Shown here: positions 12,234 through 45,453 of the stretch, piece by piece
Numbering within the stretch: position 1 is the first letter of the stretch
How the letters are laid out: each line of letters starts with the position of its first letter
Source: an uncultured Clostridia bacterium
GTDB taxonomy: Bacteria > Bacillota > Clostridia > TANB77 > CAG-508
Assembly (NCBI GenBank): GCA_944386325.1
Contig: CALXAP010000002.1
Span: forward strand, 63,030 to 127,029
DNA: 64,000 nucleotides
Reading direction: 5' to 3'
The notes under the pieces: generated by a model
Told to the model about the DNA's origin: nothing
The model's input: the letters and a program-made list of their open reading frames with translations, nothing else
The model's database searches: none
Position numbers and translations under genes: made by a program

Positions 12234-12427
12234 ACACTTCCTCCATTTTCTTATATTTTAACATACTTTTTTTAATAATCAATAATTTTTGCCACTTTTT
12301 GCAGGATTGTTTTTAAAAAGATTGCCACTTTTCGCAGGGATATATCTGCAACCGATGGTTGCAATGAATAATGAATGGTGAAGAATGAAGAATGAATAAT
12401 TTTAATAATATTTAAATAAATAGAGAA

Positions 12428-12527
12428 GTATAAGAAGGATATATATAATAATTTAGAAGTCAAAGGCATTTAGGAAGACCCCAGCTATCATTTTGACGAT
12501 AAATTATTATATATATCCTTCTTATAC
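12428..12527 (+). repeat. long-stem hairpin element (family G), copy 1
   Basis: 27-bp inverted repeat GTATAAGAAGGATATATATAATAATTT / AAATTATTATATATATCCTTCTTATAC flanking a conserved 46-nt core AGAAGTCAAAGGCATTTAGGAAGACCCCAGCTATCATTTTGACGAT. The same element recurs at 14109 and 38414. Confidence 0.8.
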
Positions 12528-12675
12528 GGTTTGTTTTTTATACAAATTTTTATTTTAAAGATATTTCTATTTATTTTTTATATTATATCAAAATCTAGTA
12601 CTGCAGAGCTATTTTTCAAAATGTTAGACATATAAATTTTAGCTGTAAATAGTTAAATTTTGTTATTTTTCATTT

Positions 12676-13944
12676 TTAAAATTGCAAATATTTTATTATA
12701 CTCTTTGCAGCCTCTCTTCCAGCTTTACTAGCCCAAGCAACTGTACATTTACCACCAATTAAATCTCCACCTGCAAATACACCTTCTATATTTGTGTTAT
12801 AATTCTCATCTACTTTTACATAACCCTTTTCATTTAATTCTAATCCATTTTCTATCGCTAGTTTTTTATTTATTTTTGAACCAATTGCCATTATTACATA
12901 ATCCATATTTATTTGATAATTACTATTTTCTATATTAACAGGATATTCTCTTGTTTCTCCTTCTTTTTTTACTAACTCTGTTTTTATTAATTCTATTTTC
13001 TCTACACGATTATTTCCAATTATTTTTACCAAATTTGCTTTATGTATAAAATTTACTCCTTCATTTTTTGCATCATTAATTTCTTTTGGTTCAGCAGGCA
13101 TTTGCTTTTCTTCTCTTCTATAAATAATATTAACACTTTTTGCATTTAATCTTTTTACAGTTCTTGCTATATCTATTGCTACATTTCCTCCGCCTATTAT
13201 AGCTACATCTTTTCCACTATAATCTGGATGTTCATTATATTTTAACAATTCATTAGCACCATATACATTTTCTAAATCTTTTCCTTCAACATCCATAAAA
13301 CAAGAATTATTTGCACCAAAAGCTAAATATATAGCATCATATTCTTTTTTCAAATTTTCCAAGTTCAAATTTTCACCAAGTATATATCCATTTTTTACAT
13401 TTATACCTAAATCTACTATTTTTTCAATTGTATTATTAATCACTTTTTTATCCAATCTAAAATCAGGTATTCCATAATTTAATATTCCACCTAATTTTTC
13501 TTCTTTCTCATATATTGTAACATTGCATCCGCTTCTTGCAAGAAAAGCTGCTGCAGTAAGTCCACTAGGACCTCCACCTATTATTGCTACTTTTTTATTG
13601 CTTACTAAATTTTCTTTTAGATTTATATTTTTGTCTTTATTTGCATCTCCAACAAAAGACTCTAACAAACCAATATCCACAGGTTTACCCTTTATTCCTC
13701 TTACACAATTTCCTTCACACTGTTTACTGTGCGGACATATTCTACCACATATTGAAGAAAGGACAGTAGTCTCTTGTAAAACATTGAAAGCTTCTTCTAA
13801 TTTATCTTCTTTTACACATTTTATAAATTCAGGAATATTATTTCCTAGTGGGCAACCATTTTGGCATGGCTTTGTCTTACAATTTAGGCAATAATTTGCT
13901 ATTTCCATTATTTCATCTATTTTTTCCATAACTTTTCCTTTCAA
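12676..13944 (-). CDS. glutamate-synthase small-subunit family (GltD/NfnB/SudA-like) FAD/NAD(P)-dependent oxidoreductase with N-terminal Fe-S
   Basis: N-terminal Cys cluster CLNCKTKPCQNGCP...CGRICPHSKQCEGNC, followed by an IIGGGPSGLTAA dinucleotide-binding motif and a second GGGNVAID Rossmann motif. Confidence 0.7.
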   Translation of the reverse strand: MKGKVMEKIDEIMEIANYCLNCKTKPCQNGCPLGNNIPEFIKCVKEDKLEEAFNVLQETTVLSSICGRICPHSKQCEGNCVRGIKGKPVDIGLLESFVGDANKDKNINLKENLVSNKKVAIIGGGPSGLTAAAFLARSGCNVTIYEKEEKLGGILNYGIPDFRLDKKVINNTIEKIVDLGINVKNGYILGENLNLENLKKEYDAIYLAFGANNSCFMDVEGKDLENVYGANELLKYNEHPDYSGKDVAIIGGGNVAIDIARTVKRLNAKSVNIIYRREEKQMPAEPKEINDAKNEGVNFIHKANLVKIIGNNRVEKIELIKTELVKKEGETREYPVNIENSNYQINMDYVIMAIGSKINKKLAIENGLELNEKGYVKVDENYNTNIEGVFAGGDLIGGKCTVAWASKAGREAAKSIIKYLQF

Positions 13945-14108
13945 TATATATTTAATATATTAATTTTATTATACATAATTTTTTCTTTCAATTATTTTGA
14001 CCATTTATTCAGGAAAATTTATTTTTCATATTTTGCTATTTACAGCCAAAATTTTATATAAAGATTTTGATATAATTTTGAATAAGTAGGAAAATTAATA
14101 AATAGAGA

Positions 14109-14208
14109 AGTATAAGAAGGATATATATAATAATTTAGAAGTCAAAGGCATTTAGGAAGACCCCAGCTATCATTTTGACGATAAATTATTATATATATTC
14201 TTTTTATA
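14109..14208 (+). repeat. long-stem hairpin element (family G), copy 2
   Basis: Near-identical to the copy at 12428-12527. The right arm has a few mismatches. Confidence 0.8.
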
Positions 14209-14327
14209 CGATTTATTTTTGATGTGAATTTTTATTTAAAGAAATTTCTCCGAAGCGCGGGCGAACAATGTTCGCCCCTACAAATATATTACTATTTTTT
14301 TATCTAAATGTTCTACTTTATAAACAT

Positions 14328-19064: not shown

Positions 19065-19455
19065 AAACTCACCATAAGTATTTTATCATATATAACATTA
19101 CTCTTCTAGAATTGTGCATAAATTTTTTAAATTATTTATTGTCTTTTTGTAGTATTATATATAGCACAAAGAAAGACTAGAGTGGCATCTCTAGTCTTTT
19201 TTTGTGCCTTTTGATGGGCAAATTATTAAATTATCTTGTATATCAATTATATATTTTTTATTCTTTTTAGTCAACTATTTTTATATAAATCTTCCTGCAG
19301 AATATAACTATTCAGGAGTAGAATTAATATTTTCAGTTTTTCGAGAAATAGCACACTAGAACGGGCGAACACTGTTCGCCCCTACAAATATTATATTAGA
19401 TTTTTTCTATTTCATGTTTTACAGATTTTACCTCTGAATAGTTATCGCAGAATTT

Positions 19456-22042: not shown

Positions 22043-22326
22043 ATATCCACCTCTTTTATACTATTACACTATTTTAGTTTACTAGTATAGTATACTCTTT
22101 TTATTATATGCTGTCAATATTATTTATTAGTATTTTTTATATAATAAATAACTGATTACTAATAATAATTAAAATTTATATTTTTGATTTTTTTGAGAAA
22201 TGGCTTTGTAGTTCAGGCGAACACTGTTCGCCCATACAATTATTTTTCTATATTATGTTTTATAGATTTTGGATATTTACCATAACAAAAAACTGATGTA
22301 TTGAAACATCAGTTTTTTGTTTGTAC

Positions 22327-28237: not shown

Positions 28238-28417
28238 GTTTACAATTCACGGCATCAGATTTTGATATAATAATATTTCATAAATTTTTCGGCTCAATAC
28301 GATATTTAAGAATTTGTAATATATAAAAATCCAATGTAGGGGCGAACATTGTTCGCCCGCGCTACGAAGCTATTTCTAAAAAAATTGAACATATAAATTT
28401 TAGCCGTGAATTGTAAC
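28238..28417 (-). repeat. composite MITE-like intergenic element (reverse orientation) between acpP and plsX
   Basis: Terminal inverted repeats GTTTACAATTCACGGC ... GCCGTGAATTGTAAC. The interior holds the reverse complement of the E-module tail, the GC palindrome TGTAGGGGCGAACATTGTTCGCCCGCGCTACGAAG (28335-28369), and a reverse B module. Confidence 0.7.
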
Positions 28418-29562: not shown

Positions 29563-29718
29563 TTACTATTCACAGCTTATAAAATTATATATTCAATTTT
29601 TGAGAAATAATTTTATAGTGCGGGCGAACACTGTTCGCCCCTACAACTATATTTTTTTGTATTATGTTATATAGATTTTGATATAATTATATCAAAATCG
29701 AATGACGTAAATTATAAC
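29563..29718 (+). repeat. composite MITE-like element (modules A-B-C-D-A') with terminal inverted repeats, between plsX and tuf
   Basis: TTACTATTCACAGC ... GACGTAAATTATAAC termini. Contains ATATATTCAATTTTTGAGAAAT (B), the GC palindrome TAGTGCGGGCGAACACTGTTCGCCCCTACA (29616-29646), and TATAGATTTTGATATAAT (D). Confidence 0.75.
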
Positions 29719-29775
29719 AAAAGATAAAAAAAATAAGAAAAATCTTTGATTTTTCTTATTTTTTCTTTTATCTTT

Positions 29776-34484: not shown

Positions 34485-34612
34485 TTTTTCACCTCCGCTA
34501 AATAAAATATATTACTAATATTCTCTATATTAGCATTGTATATTTTACCATTGTTTTAGCACTTAGTCAATATTTAGTGGAATTTATATCTTCAATTTTT
34601 AAGAAATATCTT

Positions 34613-34644
34613 TGTAGGACAGGCGAACACTGCTTTCCCCTACA
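34613..34644 (+). repeat. GC-rich palindrome family C copy, upstream of the rpsL operon
   Basis: TGTAGGACAGGCGAACACTGCTTTCCCCTACA, preceded by a B-like module AATTTATATCTTCAATTTTTAAGAAATATCTT. Confidence 0.7.
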
Positions 34645-34720
34645 ACTATAATATTAGATTTTATAAATCTTTTTGTACATATATTTTTTAGATAATAGAA
34701 ATTTAAATTTCCTATTATTT

Positions 34721-34756: not shown

Positions 34757-34966
34757 TCATTTTAAGAGTGAAATTATTTCATTCACTTTTATCCCTACGT
34801 CTGAATCTTCGTTTGATGTAGGTGATGTGATATCAAGAATATTTTTTTCATTTTCAATCACCTTTTTACTTTGATTGCTCATTGCTAATGCTTCTGAGCA
34901 ATTTACATTTACCGTTCCAAATACAATAGCTACACCCAAAAAAACATACAGCAATCTTGTAAACAT
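34757..34966 (-). CDS. small secreted protein (cassette 1 of a 5-gene array)
   Basis: 69 aa. GGAGG 8 nt upstream of the ATG. Signal peptide MFTRLLYVFLGVAIVFGTVNVNCSEA. Confidence 0.55.
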   Translation of the reverse strand: MFTRLLYVFLGVAIVFGTVNVNCSEALAMSNQSKKVIENEKNILDITSPTSNEDSDVGIKVNEIISLLK

Positions 34967-35071
34967 TTTAGTGTCCTCCTTAAAAATTATTAAATTACAA
35001 TATTTATATCATGTTTTATGTAAAGCTGTCAATGCTTTTGTTTAATTTTGTAAATTAAAAGGTAACTCTAT

Positions 35072-35322
35072 GTTACAATTCACAGCTAATAAAATATATA
35101 AAGATTTTGATATAATAATATTGAATAAATTTTGAATGCGATTGGAGATGTTTATAGAATTTGTTATATAATTTAATGAGGAATGTTCATGGGCAAAATC
35201 TTTGATTTTGAGCCTGAATGAAAGAGGCTCATTAAATTATTTTACAAATTCTTAAATATCGTATTGAGCCGAAAAATTTATGAAATATTATCATATCAAA
35301 ATCGTATGCCGTGAATAGTAAC
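35072..35322 (+). repeat. composite MITE-like element carrying the ~170-bp E module (copy 1)
   Basis: Termini GTTACAATTCACAGC ... GCCGTGAATAGTAAC. Interior nearly identical to 45204-45453 and 63361-63573. Contains the RBS + micro-ORF at 35189..35221. Confidence 0.8.
35189..35221 (+). other. conserved 10-codon micro-ORF MGKIFDFEPE inside the E module (copy 1), overlapped by the hairpin GAGCCTGAATGAAAGAGGCTC
   Basis: GAGGA 6 nt upstream of the ATG. Identical ORFs at 45319..45351 and 63440..63472. Confidence 0.35.
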
Positions 35323-35372
35323 AACTCTATTAAGAAGTAGAATTAATATATTCAATTTTTGAGAAATATCTT

Positions 35373-35404
35373 TGTAGTTCGGGCGAACACTGTTTGCCCC
35401 TACA
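35373..35404 (+). repeat. GC-rich palindrome family C copy
   Basis: TGTAGTTCGGGCGAACACTGTTTGCCCCTACA preceded by ATATATTCAATTTTTGAGAAATATCTT. Confidence 0.75.
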
Positions 35405-35457
35405 TCTATTCTATTAGATTTTTTCTATTTTAGATTTTACATCTAAATAGTTAAATT

Positions 35458-35487
35458 AAAAGAGATGCCTATTAAAAGCATCTCTAT
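35458..35487 (-). terminator. rho-independent terminator of cassette 2
   Basis: AGAGATGC-TTTTAAT-AGGCATCTCT hairpin followed by a T-run on the minus strand. Confidence 0.65.
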
Positions 35488-35503
35488 GGAGTCATCATTA
35501 TTG

Positions 35504-35845
35504 CTAAGTATCAATAGGTATAAATTTTATTTTTGCATAAAATTTTCCTTTATAATCACTACTGCAATTATTATAGATAATAAGATAATTTTCTGGTGCA
35601 TCTAGCACATTTAAAGAGTACATTATATCTTGTAATACCTTGCTATCATAATCAATCAGCAATTCTAATTTTTTATTAGAGTTATCTGCCAGAAAATTCA
35701 TAATTGTTTTCAAATCTGATTCTTCAAGTTGATACACTTGATTATCGTCATTTTCAACTCGTACAACTGCAGATGCATCTGTAGTTGTTGTCATAGCATT
35801 TGCTAATATAAATAAGAATGCAACTACAAGTAATAACTTTTTCAT
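35504..35845 (-). CDS. small secreted protein (cassette 2)
   Basis: Longest ORF reaches 35875, but AAGGAG sits before the internal ATG at 35845 (MKKLLLVVAFLFILANA signal peptide). Own sigma-A-like promoter and terminator. Confidence 0.55.
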   Translation of the reverse strand: MKKLLLVVAFLFILANAMTTTTDASAVVRVENDDNQVYQLEESDLKTIMNFLADNSNKKLELLIDYDSKVLQDIMYSLNVLDAPENYLIIYNNCSSDYKGKFYAKIKFIPIDT

Positions 35846-36022
35846 GATGAACCGACTCCTTTTTAAGTAATACATATTAAATGTCAGTATCTGTATTATA
35901 CCACTTTTTATAGTGCTTAGTAAACAATTTATGTTATTTTTATGAGCATTTTAAAAGAGGGCGTCTATTCAGACACCCTCCCATGGAGTCAACGAAAAAA
36001 ATTCACTTCACTACTTATTTAA

Positions 36023-36466
36023 TTATTTAATGTTCTCGCTCTGATATTGATTATACAGCGACAATGCCGCCACCACACTTTGTAGGGTTTTGTTTAGATT
36101 AGCCCTCCTTTCTTCTGCTTCTGGAGAAGAACCATCCAATACTTCAATTTCATAATATGATGTCCCATCGTCATACTCCCATTTCTTATGGTATATTATG
36201 AAAACATCTTCATTACTATATGCAGTTTCTAACTGCTTATTGAAATTAGATTTTTCTTCTCTATTGTCAAGCCAAACTTGAAATTCACCTCCAGCCTCCT
36301 TAACTAACGCTTTAAGTTCTTCTGGAGTAACTCCATTTAAATCATAAGCCACTGCATTTTCTGCAGTTCCAGTCTGTATGACAGGCTGTGCATAACTATG
36401 ATTTAAACCAAATCCCAAAATCAAACCCGAAACAACAACCAACATAGTAACTATCATTTTTTTCAT
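36023..36466 (-). CDS. small secreted protein (cassette 3)
   Basis: 147 aa. Signal peptide MKKMIVTMLVVVSGLILGFGLNHSYA. RBS GGAGG. Promoter TTTACA-N17-TATAAT at ~36505-36535 (minus strand). Confidence 0.6.
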   Translation of the reverse strand: MKKMIVTMLVVVSGLILGFGLNHSYAQPVIQTGTAENAVAYDLNGVTPEELKALVKEAGGEFQVWLDNREEKSNFNKQLETAYSNEDVFIIYHKKWEYDDGTSYYEIEVLDGSSPEAEERRANLNKTLQSVVAALSLYNQYQSENIK

Positions 36467-36689
36467 TTAATTTTCCTCCAAACTGAATACACTACGTTGA
36501 GCTCCATGACTATATTATAGCATTTTTAGCATAAGTTGTAAATGCTTTATGTTAATTTGATATATTAGTTCTACTTATACTTATTATTATTTAGAATTTC
36601 AACACTTTTATAAAGCATTTATTTTGATAAGCATATTAAAAGGAGGGTCTACTAAGACACCTCCCTATGGAGCAATTTTTTTACTACTA

Positions 36690-37031
36690 CTATTCTAAAT
36701 CAATTATAAATATATTTTGTTCCATTACTTCATCGTCTTTTCCAAACCATGTTGGTTCAGATAATATGATGTAGTAATTTCCATCCATTACAGCCTCTCC
36801 TAGGCTTGTAATTTTTAATTCATCCTCTGTCTTAACAGACATTACTTTAATTTTACTTATCCCTCCTCCTAATTCAGTAGCAAAAACTTCTTTACTCGTA
36901 TTTGCGATTTCATAGACATTCCCATCAATTTCAGCTGTAATTTCCTGATACTTTTGAGTATCAGATGCATTTGTAATGCTAGCAAAAGATAAGGTAATCA
37001 AAGCAATCATTAAAACAAATACTTTTTTCAT
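36690..37031 (-). CDS. small secreted protein (cassette 4)
   Basis: 113 aa. Signal peptide MKKVFVLMIALITLSFASITNA. Promoter TTTACA-N17-TATAAT at ~37070-37100 (minus strand), homologous to the cassette 3 promoter. Confidence 0.6.
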   Translation of the reverse strand: MKKVFVLMIALITLSFASITNASDTQKYQEITAEIDGNVYEIANTSKEVFATELGGGISKIKVMSVKTEDELKITSLGEAVMDGNYYIILSEPTWFGKDDEVMEQNIFIIDLE

Positions 37032-37271
37032 AAAAAATTACTCCCTTCAAAATGCAAAACATGTTGCTCCATGACTATATTATAACATTTTTAGCACAAT
37101 CTGTAAATGTATTATGTGAATTTTGTTATTAGTTATACTTATGCCTATTATTATTTTAATTATATATCATCTTATACTTTTTGATTTTTAGGCATTTTAA
37201 AAGAGATGCCTATTTAGACATCTCTTTTGGAGCAATTTGTTTATATCCGAAAAATATATGTTATTATTCAT

Positions 37272-37583
37272 TTATATCTCAAAAATATACCCACTTTCTA
37301 CTAAAACCTCATTTTGACTTTCTTTCCAGCTCCTGTTTGTAATCTTTATATAATAACCTCCATTATTCAACTTATTTATACTTGTCTTATCCCTACTTAT
37401 AGGTATCCGCTCTATTTTGTTAATTGATTGAAGATTTTGTTTTAAAGTTTCTACTGAATTATTTCGATTATTAATTCTACTAATTAAATCTTGATAACTA
37501 TTTACTCTATCATACGCCATACAATTTGTAGTATTAAGAACTAATAATCCAACAAATGAGAAAATCGCTAATAATGTTTTCAT
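37272..37583 (-). CDS. small secreted protein (cassette 5)
   Basis: 103 aa. Signal peptide MKTLLAIFSFVGLLVLNTTNCMA. Confidence 0.55.
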   Translation of the reverse strand: MKTLLAIFSFVGLLVLNTTNCMAYDRVNSYQDLISRINNRNNSVETLKQNLQSINKIERIPISRDKTSINKLNNGGYYIKITNRSWKESQNEVLVESGYIFEI

Positions 37584-37693: not shown

Positions 37694-37852
37694 GTTATTA
37701 TAATTCACAGCTTATATAGTTACATGTTCAATTTCTTGATAAATAGCTCTGTTGTGCGGGCGAACACTGCTTGCCCCTACAGCTATTCTATTAGATTCTT
37801 CTATATAAGTTTTTATAGATTTTGATATAATTATATAGCTGTAAATTGTAAC
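37694..37852 (+). repeat. composite MITE-like element (A-B-C-D-A') between cassette 5 and the Nudix gene
   Basis: GTTATTATAATTCACAGC ... AGCTGTAAATTGTAAC termini. Contains TGTTGTGCGGGCGAACACTGCTTGCCCCTACAGC (37750-37783). Confidence 0.75.
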
Positions 37853-37853
37853 T

Positions 37854-38255
37854 TTAATTTAAATCTTTTAAAACATCTCTTAAAACTTGTTTAGATTCCT
37901 CAAATGTAATCTCATCAAGAGCTTTCTCTACATCAACCCAAATAATTTGTGCCACTTCTTCTTCTTGGGGTTTATCTTCACCAGAAACTTTTCTTGCTAA
38001 AAAATAAATAACATCTTTTATAACACCTTCTTCTGGTGAATATGTTTCTTTATATACTTTATCGCTAATTATTTCAACATCAATATTTGTTTCTTCTTTT
38101 ATTTCTCTTATTGCAGTTTCTTTATCTGTTTCATTTTCTTCTGGATGTCCCTTTGGAAATCCTATATGCCCTTTTTGATGTTTTACAAGTAATACTTTTC
38201 CATGATCAATTACAATACATCCACATGATTTATCTTTTTTCATAAAAACCTCCAT
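37854..38255 (-). CDS. Nudix hydrolase
   Basis: Nudix box GFPKGHPEENETDKETAIREIKEETNI (GX5EX7REUXEEXGU). Confidence 0.8.
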   Translation of the reverse strand: MEVFMKKDKSCGCIVIDHGKVLLVKHQKGHIGFPKGHPEENETDKETAIREIKEETNIDVEIISDKVYKETYSPEEGVIKDVIYFLARKVSGEDKPQEEEVAQIIWVDVEKALDEITFEESKQVLRDVLKDLN

Positions 38256-38270
38256 TTGAGTAATTTCTTC

Positions 38271-38304
38271 GCAATACGGGCGAACAATGTTTGCCCCCTA
38301 CATA
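38271..38304 (+). repeat. GC-rich palindrome family C copy, 16 bp upstream of the Nudix start
   Basis: GCAATACGGGCGAACAATGTTTGCCCCCTACATA. Confidence 0.7.
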
Positions 38305-38413
38305 TCTACTATTATTTTTTTACTAAAATATTTAAATTCTCTACTTTCTAAGTATTAATTAACTAACTATATATCTTTTTGTAGTAGCTTCTTATATTAA
38401 AAAATTTAGAGTA

Positions 38414-38509
38414 GCTATTAAAGTGATATATAAACATTTAGAAGTCAAAGGCATTTAGGAAGACCCTAGCTATCATTTTGACAATAAATGTTTATATATC
38501 ACTTTAATA
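38414..38509 (+). repeat. long-stem hairpin element (family G), copy 3, with a co-varying stem
   Basis: Stem CTATTAAAGTGATATATAAACATTT / AAATGTTTATATATCACTTTAATAG is a perfect 25-bp inverted repeat. Its sequence differs from copies 1 and 2, but the 46-nt core AGAAGTCAAAGGCATTTAGGAAGACCCTAGCTATCATTTTGACAAT is conserved. Confidence 0.8.
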
Positions 38510-38542
38510 GCGGATTATTTTATAAGTGAACTACTAATTACT

Positions 38543-38962
38543 CTATGGCAATACATACCTTATATTTCTAGTTATTGTTGTGCCTTTACCTATTTCCATA
38601 TTTACTGCGACAACTTGTTTATAATCAATATTTATTAATTGAAACGTACATTTTTTTACATGATTAACTAATGCTACTTTATTTAAATATATCTTATTAT
38701 CCTGAAAAGTATATTTATTTCCACTACTAAATTCAATAGAATTACTTGTTACATTTGTAACTTCATTATTTAATTTTTTTACTTCTTCTACAAAAGCCAA
38801 ATTAAATTTACTATATTCTGCAACTCTATCTGTTGCTTCATTCATTTGTACAATATTCGTATTAATAAATGATATTATAACTGTAACTATTCCTATTATT
38901 ATAGTAAAACCTACTACATACACAACTAAATTTGCAAGTGTTATACCTTTATTATCTTTCAT
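38543..38962 (-). CDS. hypothetical single-pass membrane protein
   Basis: 139 aa. The N-terminus KGITLANLVVYVVGFTIIIGIVTVII is reminiscent of a pilin-like hydrophobic N-terminus but lacks the canonical G-F-T-L-I-E. Confidence 0.4.
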   Translation of the reverse strand: MKDNKGITLANLVVYVVGFTIIIGIVTVIISFINTNIVQMNEATDRVAEYSKFNLAFVEEVKKLNNEVTNVTSNSIEFSSGNKYTFQDNKIYLNKVALVNHVKKCTFQLINIDYKQVVAVNMEIGKGTTITRNIRYVLP

Positions 38963-45203: not shown

Positions 45204-45453
45204 GTTATAATTAACGGCATAAAATAATATAAAGAATTTGATATAATAATATTGAATAAATTTTGAATGTGATTGGAGATGTTTATAGAATTTGTTATAT
45301 AATTTAATGAGGAATGTTCATGGGCAAAATCTTTGATTTTGAGCCTGAATGAAAGAGGCTCATTTAATTATTTTACAAATTCTTAAATATCGTATTGAGC
45401 CGAAAAATTTATGAAATATTATTATTTCAAATTCATATAGCGTAAATTGTAAC
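45204..45453 (+). repeat. composite MITE-like element carrying the E module (copy 2)
   Basis: GTTATAATTAACGGC ... AGCGTAAATTGTAAC termini. Micro-ORF MGKIFDFEPE at 45319..45351. Confidence 0.8.

Follow-up and report, generated by a model that had tools for sequence, protein, structure and literature searches.

A likely family of miniature transposable elements built around a conserved, probably RNA-level, structured module in uncultured gut Clostridia

Introduction

When a ten-codon reading frame with a well placed ribosome-binding site and a hairpin at its stop codon recurs in near-identical copies, is it a gene that is being conserved, or is something else being copied? This question is raised by a stretch of 64,000 nucleotides from an uncultured Clostridia bacterium (assembly GCA_944386325.1, contig CALXAP010000002.1, positions 63,030 to 127,029), which we call the window; this 64 kb has about 25% G+C and carries nearly all of its genes on the - strand. 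An earlier note made from the letters of the window described in it a repeat of about 170 bp in three copies, with a micro open reading frame (micro-ORF), and offered recent mobility, strong constraint of the leader-peptide or attenuator type, or a small toxin or small RNA gene as explanations. Here E denotes the core module of this repeat, E1, E2 and E3 its classes, and numbers of the form L0xx the homologous and related loci that were collected. We consider it likely that the repeat represents a new family of miniature inverted-repeat transposable elements (MITEs) built around a conserved, probably RNA-level, structured module.

Results

Copies of the repeat in the window

The E core, a rod-shaped hairpin module with helices P1 to P6, was located on the + strand by covariance model at 35118-35296 (copy 1, model R1, 178.5 bits), 45249-45427 (copy 2) and 63369-63547 (copy 3). 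Three near-identical copies of 179 nt within 64 kb mean that the repeat is not a product of chance. Pairwise they are 97.8, 96.6 and 95.5% identical over 179 nt, with the differences mostly at the outer edges, which bears out the earlier figure of more than 95% and makes the word identical, also used for the copies, a slight overstatement. The size of about 170 bp applies to the rod-shaped core; the full unit is larger, 251 bp once its terminal inverted repeats are included. The tail that had been reported in reverse is present as the 3' half of E, with matches that span 28240-28330 inverted with respect to the full copies. Together this gives 3.5 copies of E per 64 kb, plus one just past the end of the window, in elements of 251 to 383 bp.

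Mobility of the element

Evidence on the nature of the repeat comes from the edges of the unit that contains copy 1 (35072-35322, + strand, 251 bp). It begins and ends with 15-bp terminal inverted repeats, GTTACAATTCACRGC, of which the left one reads GTTACAATTCACAGC (35072-35086, +) and the right one GCCGTGAATAGTAAC (35308-35322, +), and it is flanked by an 8-bp target-site duplication, AACTCTAT, at 35064-35071 and 35323-35330. Allowing up to 3 mismatches, the terminal repeat is matched 14 times in the window and 1.15 times in shuffled sequence. Ten related assemblies, retrieved through the S12 protein of the window, allow filled and empty sites to be compared. The spacer between the genes for a 113-aa and a 69-aa protein is 538 nt long in the window and in L022, where AACTCTAT is followed by the 251 bp running from GTTACAATTCACAGC to GCCGTGAATAGTAAC and then by AACTCTAT again. 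In L018, L019, L025 and L026 the same spacer is 279 nt long and the empty site is exact, reading GGT-AACTCTAT-TAAGAAG.

A different insertion is present in L019 and L026 between the 69-aa gene and rpsL, 0.5 kb from the first, where the window has an empty site, and both of these polymorphic sites differ among strains with an identical S12 protein. The target duplication of the L019 insertion matches at 7 of 8 positions and older copies are degenerate, while another perfect 8-bp duplication, GATTTTCT, is found in L005. Copy 2 lies in an element with degenerate terminal repeats (45204-45453, +, around the core at 45249-45427), which is fixed in five strains of the same species and missing from sister species that have a RecG 92-94% identical. 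In strain L028 copy 3 is unchanged, and two contigs break inside it, as is expected of a repeat. The element inserted recently, and the mobility that had been one of the explanations on offer is confirmed by the terminal inverted repeats, the 8-bp duplication, the exact empty sites and the second strain-specific insertion. Terminal inverted repeats, 8-bp duplications, exact empty-site polymorphism and small multi-copy units without conserved coding capacity are the marks of a MITE, and the E module is almost certainly the interior of such a non-autonomous DNA transposon.

The same terminal repeats bound several kinds of unit. Besides the E-type elements of about 250 bp, there are D1-type elements of 156-180 bp, which hold a GTAG-tagged hairpin resembling repetitive extragenic palindromic (REP) sequences, minimal elements of 73-78 bp, and a D1+E composite of 383 bp (63191-63573, +) in which the left repeat, D1, the E core of copy 3 and the right repeat follow one another. 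A chimeric element at 28239-28417 (-), inverted relative to the other copies, joins D1 to the 3' half of E only. Two of the polymorphic loci carry irregularities of their own: the E-type insertion at L019:4440-5005 has about 20 extra nt outside its left terminal repeat, and at L018:4785-5005 only the left part of an L019-type element is found, followed by a deletion that removed E and the neighbouring D1.

Structure of the core

A homologue search with a 22-mer of the module's 3' part led to 13 loci in nine uncultured Clostridia/Bacillota metagenome-assembled genomes (MAGs) from the gut, so that an exact 22-mer of the 3' loop strand region is common to all nine. A metagenome scan added four further loci, all from one species already seen, and the comparison as a whole covers about six independent lineages. 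Alignment and RNAalifold give a single rod with helices P1 to P5. P1 is formed by AUAAAUUUU and AAAAUUUAU, and above it lies a large internal loop with the strands GAAUGYGAUUGGA on the 5' side and CGUAUUGAGCCGAAA on the 3' side. P2 covaries, P3 pairs AGAAUUUGU with ACAAAUUCU, P4 has about 13 bp with AU, CG and GU alternatives, and P5 pairs UUCAY with RUGAA; in the window P5 is TTCAT (35186-35190) with ATGAA (35218-35222), so the helix spans 35186-35222 on the + strand and encloses a variable apical hairpin, P6, which was recognised by inspection and single-sequence folding.

Conservation is highest in the unpaired loop strands. The two sides of the large internal loop, GAATGCGATTGGA at 35134-35146 (+) and CGTATTGAGCCGAAA at 35260-35274 (+) in the window, are nearly invariant, with the consensus CGAAUGUR..YGGAR on the 5' side and CGUA..RMCCGAR on the 3' side; GAAUG, GGA and CCGA do not vary at all across E1, E2 and E3, and about 30 unpaired nucleotides are invariant in total. 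The paired strands vary and compensate. In a model-derived alignment of 23 sequences, which was fitted to the model, pairing holds in 97.7% of the cells, with double changes at 24 of the 50 pairs; none of 500 shuffles matches this pairing, and controls in which the strands were slid are 37-48% paired. An independent MAFFT/alifold alignment that includes E2 (L010:4326-4483 and L003:3204-3363) and E3 (L042:4617-4770) has compensated changes at 24 of 47 pairs. The E3 member keeps the rod architecture in a genome with a RecG that is only 75% identical. The core in the window belongs to a wider family of rod-shaped hairpins, 150-180 nt long, that comprises E1, E2 and E3.

The whole 251-bp element also folds as one rod (-77.7 kcal/mol, z = -9.9). 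Within the helices G·U is found in 36 cells at 8 pair positions and A·C in 2 cells at 2 positions, an asymmetry that draws on only about ten independent sites. Since a DNA palindrome predicts symmetry, a helix that tolerates G·U and not A·C points to an RNA read from the + strand of the window. On balance these observations favour constraint on the E core at the level of RNA.

The hairpin drawn in the earlier note, GAGCCT/AGGCTC at 35210-35230 (+), was tried as a functional helix and rejected. In copy 1 its sequence is present as described, and 95% of the E1 cells can pair there, but double changes are lacking and the pairing is no better than in shuffles. Neither E2 nor E3 has it, and it does not appear in the minimum-energy fold; it stands as an alternative pairing. 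The covariation that had been proposed as a check is found in the helices of the rod and is lacking in this one.

The micro-ORF

The reading frame that drew attention to the repeat encodes MGKIFDFEPE, and its DNA, ATGGGCAAAATCTTTGATTTTGAGCCTGAATGA, occurs at 35189-35221 (+), 45320-45352 and 63440-63472. In copy 1 GAGGA stands at 35178-35182, 6 nt ahead of the ATG, and GAGCCT...AGGCTC holds the TGA stop (35219-35221) in its loop. Each of these features, GAGGA-N6-ATG, the 10-codon frame and the stop-holding hairpin, is present in all three full copies, as had been described. The case for a gene had been made to depend on their being kept in homologous copies from elsewhere, and the ATG is not kept: it is confined to the window's own lineage, and elsewhere reads ACG (as in lineages B, C and D) or GCG, or is missing, as in classes E2 and E3. 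The ribosome-binding motif is conserved as GAGG, but as one strand of a helix, because it pairs with CUCA.

The same helix geometry accounts for the start codon. T35190 of the ATG pairs with A35218, where other lineages have C-G; in the RNAalifold alignment (columns 73 and 104, which correspond to columns 74 and 112 of the model alignment) 7 sequences have CG for this pair and 4 have UA. Since the start codon and the stop codon lie in opposite strands of P5, the frame is delimited by that helix, and it exists only because of one compensated substitution from C-G to U-A. Frames of this kind are also not rare, as the window has 35 ATG-started frames of 8-30 codons preceded by a Shine-Dalgarno motif and shuffled sequence has 33.3 +/- 4.5.

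Frames of at least 20 aa within the element are limited to one of 21 aa and one of 30 aa in the repeat or arm regions, with sequences that other lineages do not share, and the reverse strand offers no more than a TTG-started frame of 30 aa in the arm region, unshared in its sequence with other lineages. We found no frame on either strand that is conserved between lineages, which leaves the small toxin without support, whereas the small RNA that had been named beside it may still be encoded; to our reading the peptide itself, acidic and polar, does not look like a toxin. We are all but certain that the 10-codon frame is spurious and not a gene.

Conservation, carriers and distribution

The core is kept better than what surrounds it. 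Within core positions 7-164 there are 2 differences between copies 1 and 2 and 1 between copies 1 and 3, whereas the arms and terminal repeats of copies 1 and 2 differ by about 14-23%. The core is also found outside the carrier with the GTTAC terminal repeat, in lineages B and C and in classes E2 and E3. In every copy examined E sits at the tip of a further near-perfect stem of 13-57 bp, and the sequence of that stem is unrelated between carriers.

A locus shared between species makes the same point. In two species (L002 and L006) E lies at the same place, between a 97-aa gene and dtd, and E with its inner arm is identical at 185 of 186 positions, against 86% identity over the 3.5 kb around it. 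The outer arms have diverged heavily yet remain self-complementary, with 53 of 57 and 51 of 53 Watson-Crick pairs. Across three species with this dtd locus the core is 97-99.5% identical and the flanks are 80-89% identical. From such comparisons the core appears to be more than transposon filler, and part of what had been proposed as strong constraint is upheld, in the covarying helices and in a core better kept than its flanks, while the leader peptide and attenuator that had been given as the example are not.

Several loci show what has happened to individual copies. At the dtd locus the copy in L010 (3680-3846), compared with that of L006 (2949-3122), lies the other way round between its long arms and lacks its 5' half, which suggests recombination between the 50-bp inverted arms. 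At L042:4590-4800 E3 lies inside a terminator-like hairpin after recG, and at L043:4555-4765, where RecG is identical (P0046), E3 and the 5' arm are absent (146 nt) and the 3' arm is kept as a hairpin loop. The copy at L009:1865-2181 (-) has a G-to-A change that breaks P3, and an insert of about 170 nt in the apical loop; this insert holds the hairpin AAAATCTTTGATTTT, which is also the apex of P6 in the window and the hairpin after tuf (window, about 29740-29760). At L004:2098-2193 (-) a weak model match of 22-25 bits falls on a hairpin of about 90 nt with 15-bp arms that contains TGAGACCGATAAAA, a sequence resembling the conserved 3' loop of E; it could be a relative in miniature or have matched by chance. 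A broader model, R2, run over the collected loci found no further distant members.

Neighbouring genes and expression signals

At about 9 of 11 co-directional gene pairs E is antisense to both neighbours, which, given crude ORF calls, is a trend and not proof. The leader peptide or attenuator is not supported, as the ATG is unconserved, no intrinsic terminator is predicted in or adjoining the element, and E is more often antisense than upstream of a co-oriented gene. One placement of the other kind is the composite element, whose right end (63573) is 43 nt upstream of the dut start codon.

Within the element there is a promoter match, TGGAGA-18-TATAAT, at 10 of 12 positions, and its -10 reads TAATCA outside the window's lineage. 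By eye, most lineages also have a -10-like TGnTAnnnT 4-8 nt ahead of P1; we give it little weight, since the other arm has its mirror image and promoter matches in the scan are no more frequent than expected by chance.

Database searches

Rfam 15 at the gathering threshold reports only a tRNA in the whole window. With E1 from the window and from L002 and E3 from L042 as queries, relaxing the limit to E <= 10 adds only far-sub-threshold snoRNA and miRNA hairpin models, and the 6S RNA family RF00013 is not among them. The 251-bp element has no blastn match in plasmids and phages, and a scan of viral contigs gave 0 matches. A literature search with the conserved loop strings returned unrelated primer matches only, and a search by topic returned nothing relevant. 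As judged from these comparisons, the E core appears to be an uncatalogued structured motif that is conserved across several species.

Discussion

Proposed reading and its difficulties

The results describe an element that moves and a core that is conserved beyond what carries it, and the MITE family with a structured core that we favour would combine both. The terminal-repeat and duplication signature suggests that a DDE-type transposase encoded elsewhere would move the element in trans. The core would act as RNA from the + strand of the window, its invariant two-sided loop could serve as a platform for a protein, and its long outer stem would make the transcript a substrate for processing by an RNase III-type (double-strand-specific) enzyme, or an insulating one. 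Correia hairpin transcripts, from another family of such elements, have been reported as RNase III substrates. We put forward protein binding and processing as a tentative model that has less than an even chance of being right. More speculative still, and in our view rather improbable, is the extension in which E is a hitherto unrecognised protein-binding class of rod-shaped structured RNA with a 6S-like bubble, resident and kept by selection as a gene in some gut Clostridia with small genomes and elsewhere captured by a transposon and amplified to dozens of expressed copies.

A number of observations count against the favoured reading. The opposite strands of the element fold nearly alike (-77.7 vs -71.6 kcal/mol), so a hairpin at the level of DNA is still conceivable; the count of 24 in 50 comes from an alignment built on the model, the excess of G·U over A·C has the narrow base described above, and promoter matches in the element are not above those in shuffles. 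The distribution is patchy, with the truncated copy of L010 and the lost copy of L043, and the sampled loci from sister species (L020-L024 and L038-L041) have no E copy. Such patchiness argues against an indispensable host function, and horizontal spread may explain part of the conservation across species. As for mobility, the window and the 43 loci, about 0.5 Mb together, yielded no autonomous element sharing these terminal repeats, no locus has two of them spaced 1-2 kb apart, and Pfam searches with 10 window ORFs returned housekeeping genes and a serine recombinase and no DDE transposase. The only insertion sequence seen, beside tuf in a sister species (DUF772/DDE_Tnp_1, L023:9742-10414), was considered as the partner and set aside, as its ends are unrelated to the GTTAC repeat.

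Alternative explanations

Several of these difficulties would be natural if E were a purely selfish DNA palindrome, with hairpin and loops needed only in the DNA, as transposase sites or for a hairpin or cruciform intermediate of transposition that targets the loops of other palindromes, and with conservation through recent horizontal spread and no RNA role. This is a serious alternative to which we give a minority share of belief. It fits the clear mobility, the patchy distribution with truncated and deleted copies and the good folding of both strands; E is always central in a longer palindrome, with the D1-type elements showing an 'empty' form in which GATTTTGATATAAT is joined to TATATCAAAATC, and the near-perfect arms suggest arm-to-arm homogenisation over selection. 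It is harder to reconcile with terminal repeats, the expected transposase sites, that are less conserved than the core, with the same core in unrelated arms, with G·U at 8 sites vs A·C at 2, and with the dtd locus of three species, where neutral decay would not predict the difference between core and flanks. That locus speaks also for a second alternative, a trans-acting non-coding RNA gene of the host, a rod like 6S or signal recognition particle RNA, that is single-copy and syntenic in some species and was captured and amplified by a DNA transposon in the window's lineage. A syntenic copy linked to dtd and conserved beyond its neighbouring genes, a 6S-like build with a closing stem, a two-sided bubble of 13-15 nt and a long internal stem, loops that are invariant across genera and the -10-like box before P1 would all agree with it. 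We nevertheless think it unlikely, as there is no match at E <= 10 to Rfam 6S or to any bacterial family, the module is dispensable in some strains and absent from the sampled sister-species loci, the extrapolated dozens of copies per 1.1-Mb genome would be odd for a dosage-sensitive regulator, and the mirrored -10-like box is not strand-specific.

The remaining explanations tie E to its immediate surroundings. A mobile module acting in cis on the expression of neighbours, as a promoter or as a terminator or insulator hairpin in the manner of Correia elements, could explain why E faces the gene downstream in several intergenic regions between divergent genes (such as those at dut, L007 and L012) and why the copies of L002, L006 and L042 are in terminator position after a co-oriented gene, and the internal promoter match would fit it. 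Against this stand the unconserved -10 of that match, the chance level of promoter matches, the missing U-tract terminator and the prevalence of antisense placement, and a plain promoter or terminator needs no 30 or so invariant loop nucleotides, so that we regard it as distinctly improbable. An invertible segment, flipped between long inverted repeats by a site-specific recombinase, is brought to mind by the inverted repeats of 13-57 bp around every copy, by the opposite orientation of E between its arms in L010 and L006 and by the large serine recombinase gene at 58869-60482. It would be very surprising if this were the explanation, since copies 2 and 3 have a single orientation in all same-species strains sampled, most copies have no adjoining recombinase, such segments have no need of a covarying hairpin interior, and for the one inversion seen, ordinary recombination between 50-bp repeats is explanation enough. 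A coding role, as a 10-codon leader peptide with its attenuator hairpin or as a small toxin, has in its favour that start, frame and hairpin are identical in all copies of the window's lineage. With an ATG that E2 and E3 lack, that lineages B, C and D replace by ACG and that changes together with its partner in P5, with frames of this sort at chance rate, a hairpin that has neither covariation nor a predicted terminator, and a co-oriented downstream gene that is usually missing, we find it barely credible.

Comparison with known systems

The closest resemblance in kind is to structured MITEs of other bacteria. The bcr1 repeat of the Bacillus cereus group (about 155 bp) is non-coding, has short direct repeats, varies between strains, is transcribed and shows compensatory changes that keep a duplex at the RNA level (Delihas 2011, PMC3184786). 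E is likewise a small interspersed Firmicute repeat with compensatory changes and strain variation. The two have no sequence similarity, and bcr1 has a 5-bp duplication and a cruciform of two stem-loops, whereas E forms a single rod, has an 8-bp duplication and 15-bp terminal repeats, and its core is common to genera in unrelated carriers. The Correia (NEMIS/CREE) elements of Neisseria, ERIC and RUP are MITEs of 100-160 bp with terminal inverted repeats, target duplications, long hairpins and strain polymorphism, and Correia elements carry promoters (PMC3184786). Their duplications are TA and it is their terminal repeat that is conserved, while in E the interior is conserved above the terminal repeats and about 30 unpaired nucleotides are invariant. 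E is set apart from these structured MITEs by an interior better conserved than the ends, unrelated carriers across genera, invariant unpaired nucleotides in this number, and the existence of both syntenic low-copy and amplified states.

The likeness to 6S RNA (SsrS/BsrA) is one of shape only: both are rods of about 180 nt, each with a long stem that closes it, a large two-sided bubble at the centre and a long stem inside. E differs from it in lacking an RF00013 match at E <= 10 and in being multi-copy, transposon-borne, patchy and dispensable in some strains. The strings UGAGCCGA and GAAUGUG are also present in E. coli 6S RNA, but on other strands and in another order, and we take this to be chance.

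The constant position of E at a palindrome centre recalls IS1397/ISKpn1 and IS621, which insert into palindromic (REP) units (works listed in the references of PMC3184786; PMC3733652). The palindrome around E may have existed before it or evolved with it, and the host palindromes in the window belong to its REP-like, GTAG-tagged repeat system. Those insertion sequences are autonomous with their own transposases, while E is non-coding and either insertion into the palindrome or deletion from it may have come about. Short interspersed nuclear elements (SINEs) such as Alu, derived from 7SL RNA, offer an analogy only, that of a structured RNA-like module amplified by borrowed mobility; SINEs move through RNA and reverse transcription, and the repeat and duplication signature of E indicates transposition of DNA.

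Other features of the region

The D1 module shares with E the GTTAC terminal repeat that bounds its elements. It is a REP-like, G+C-rich hairpin, reading GTAG followed by GGGGCGAACAnTGTTCGCCC on the - strand, with 11 direct copies that are all in one orientation (14235-14301, 19339-19405, 22191-22257, 29598-29664, 34597-34663, 35357-35423, 37734-37800, 38254-38320, 54175-54241, 56691-56757 and 63279-63345) and an inverted copy at 28335-28382. GTAG beside a short G+C-rich hairpin in many copies is the pattern of GTAG-tagged REP sequences, and it applies to D1 and not to E. Another repeat, I8, has 144 nt with an internal inverted repeat (12415-12558, 14097-14240 and 38400-38543), and two of its copies, 94% identical, flank the gene for a 422-aa Fer4_20/Pyr_redox_2 oxidoreductase (12676-13944).

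Copy 1 lies within a run of small ORFs of 69-147 aa (window 34757-37583, and L018-L024) that have no Pfam match in the related assemblies; to our eye the N-termini of those in the window resemble signal peptides. Their number and sizes vary among assemblies with identical S12, which points to a hypervariable island next to the str operon. The interval 56795-60482 contains the serine recombinase (58869-60482), a staphylococcal-nuclease homologue (57697-58590) and a HEPN/nucleotidyltransferase pair (57088-57483 and 56795-57112) assigned from synteny with L028, and may be the remnant of an integrated element or a defence islet.

Significance

For annotation, the lesson is that a convincing set of ribosome-binding site, ATG, stop and hairpin arose here wholly from the geometry of an RNA or DNA helix, and callers of micro-ORFs should compare homologues before annotating. 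The E core has no Rfam family, shows unusually good covariation and keeps about 30 loop nucleotides invariant across genera, which makes it well suited to a seed alignment. A core that is better kept than the transposon ends and that sits in unrelated carriers would be either a captured host RNA or a coloniser of hairpin tips, neither of which is well documented in bacteria, and if the capture were true it would be a bacterial, DNA-mediated counterpart of the origin of Alu from 7SL RNA. As for the organism, a gut bacterium whose genome measures about 1.1 Mb, the element is at present active there, can serve as a strain marker and is a source of variation in a reduced genome.

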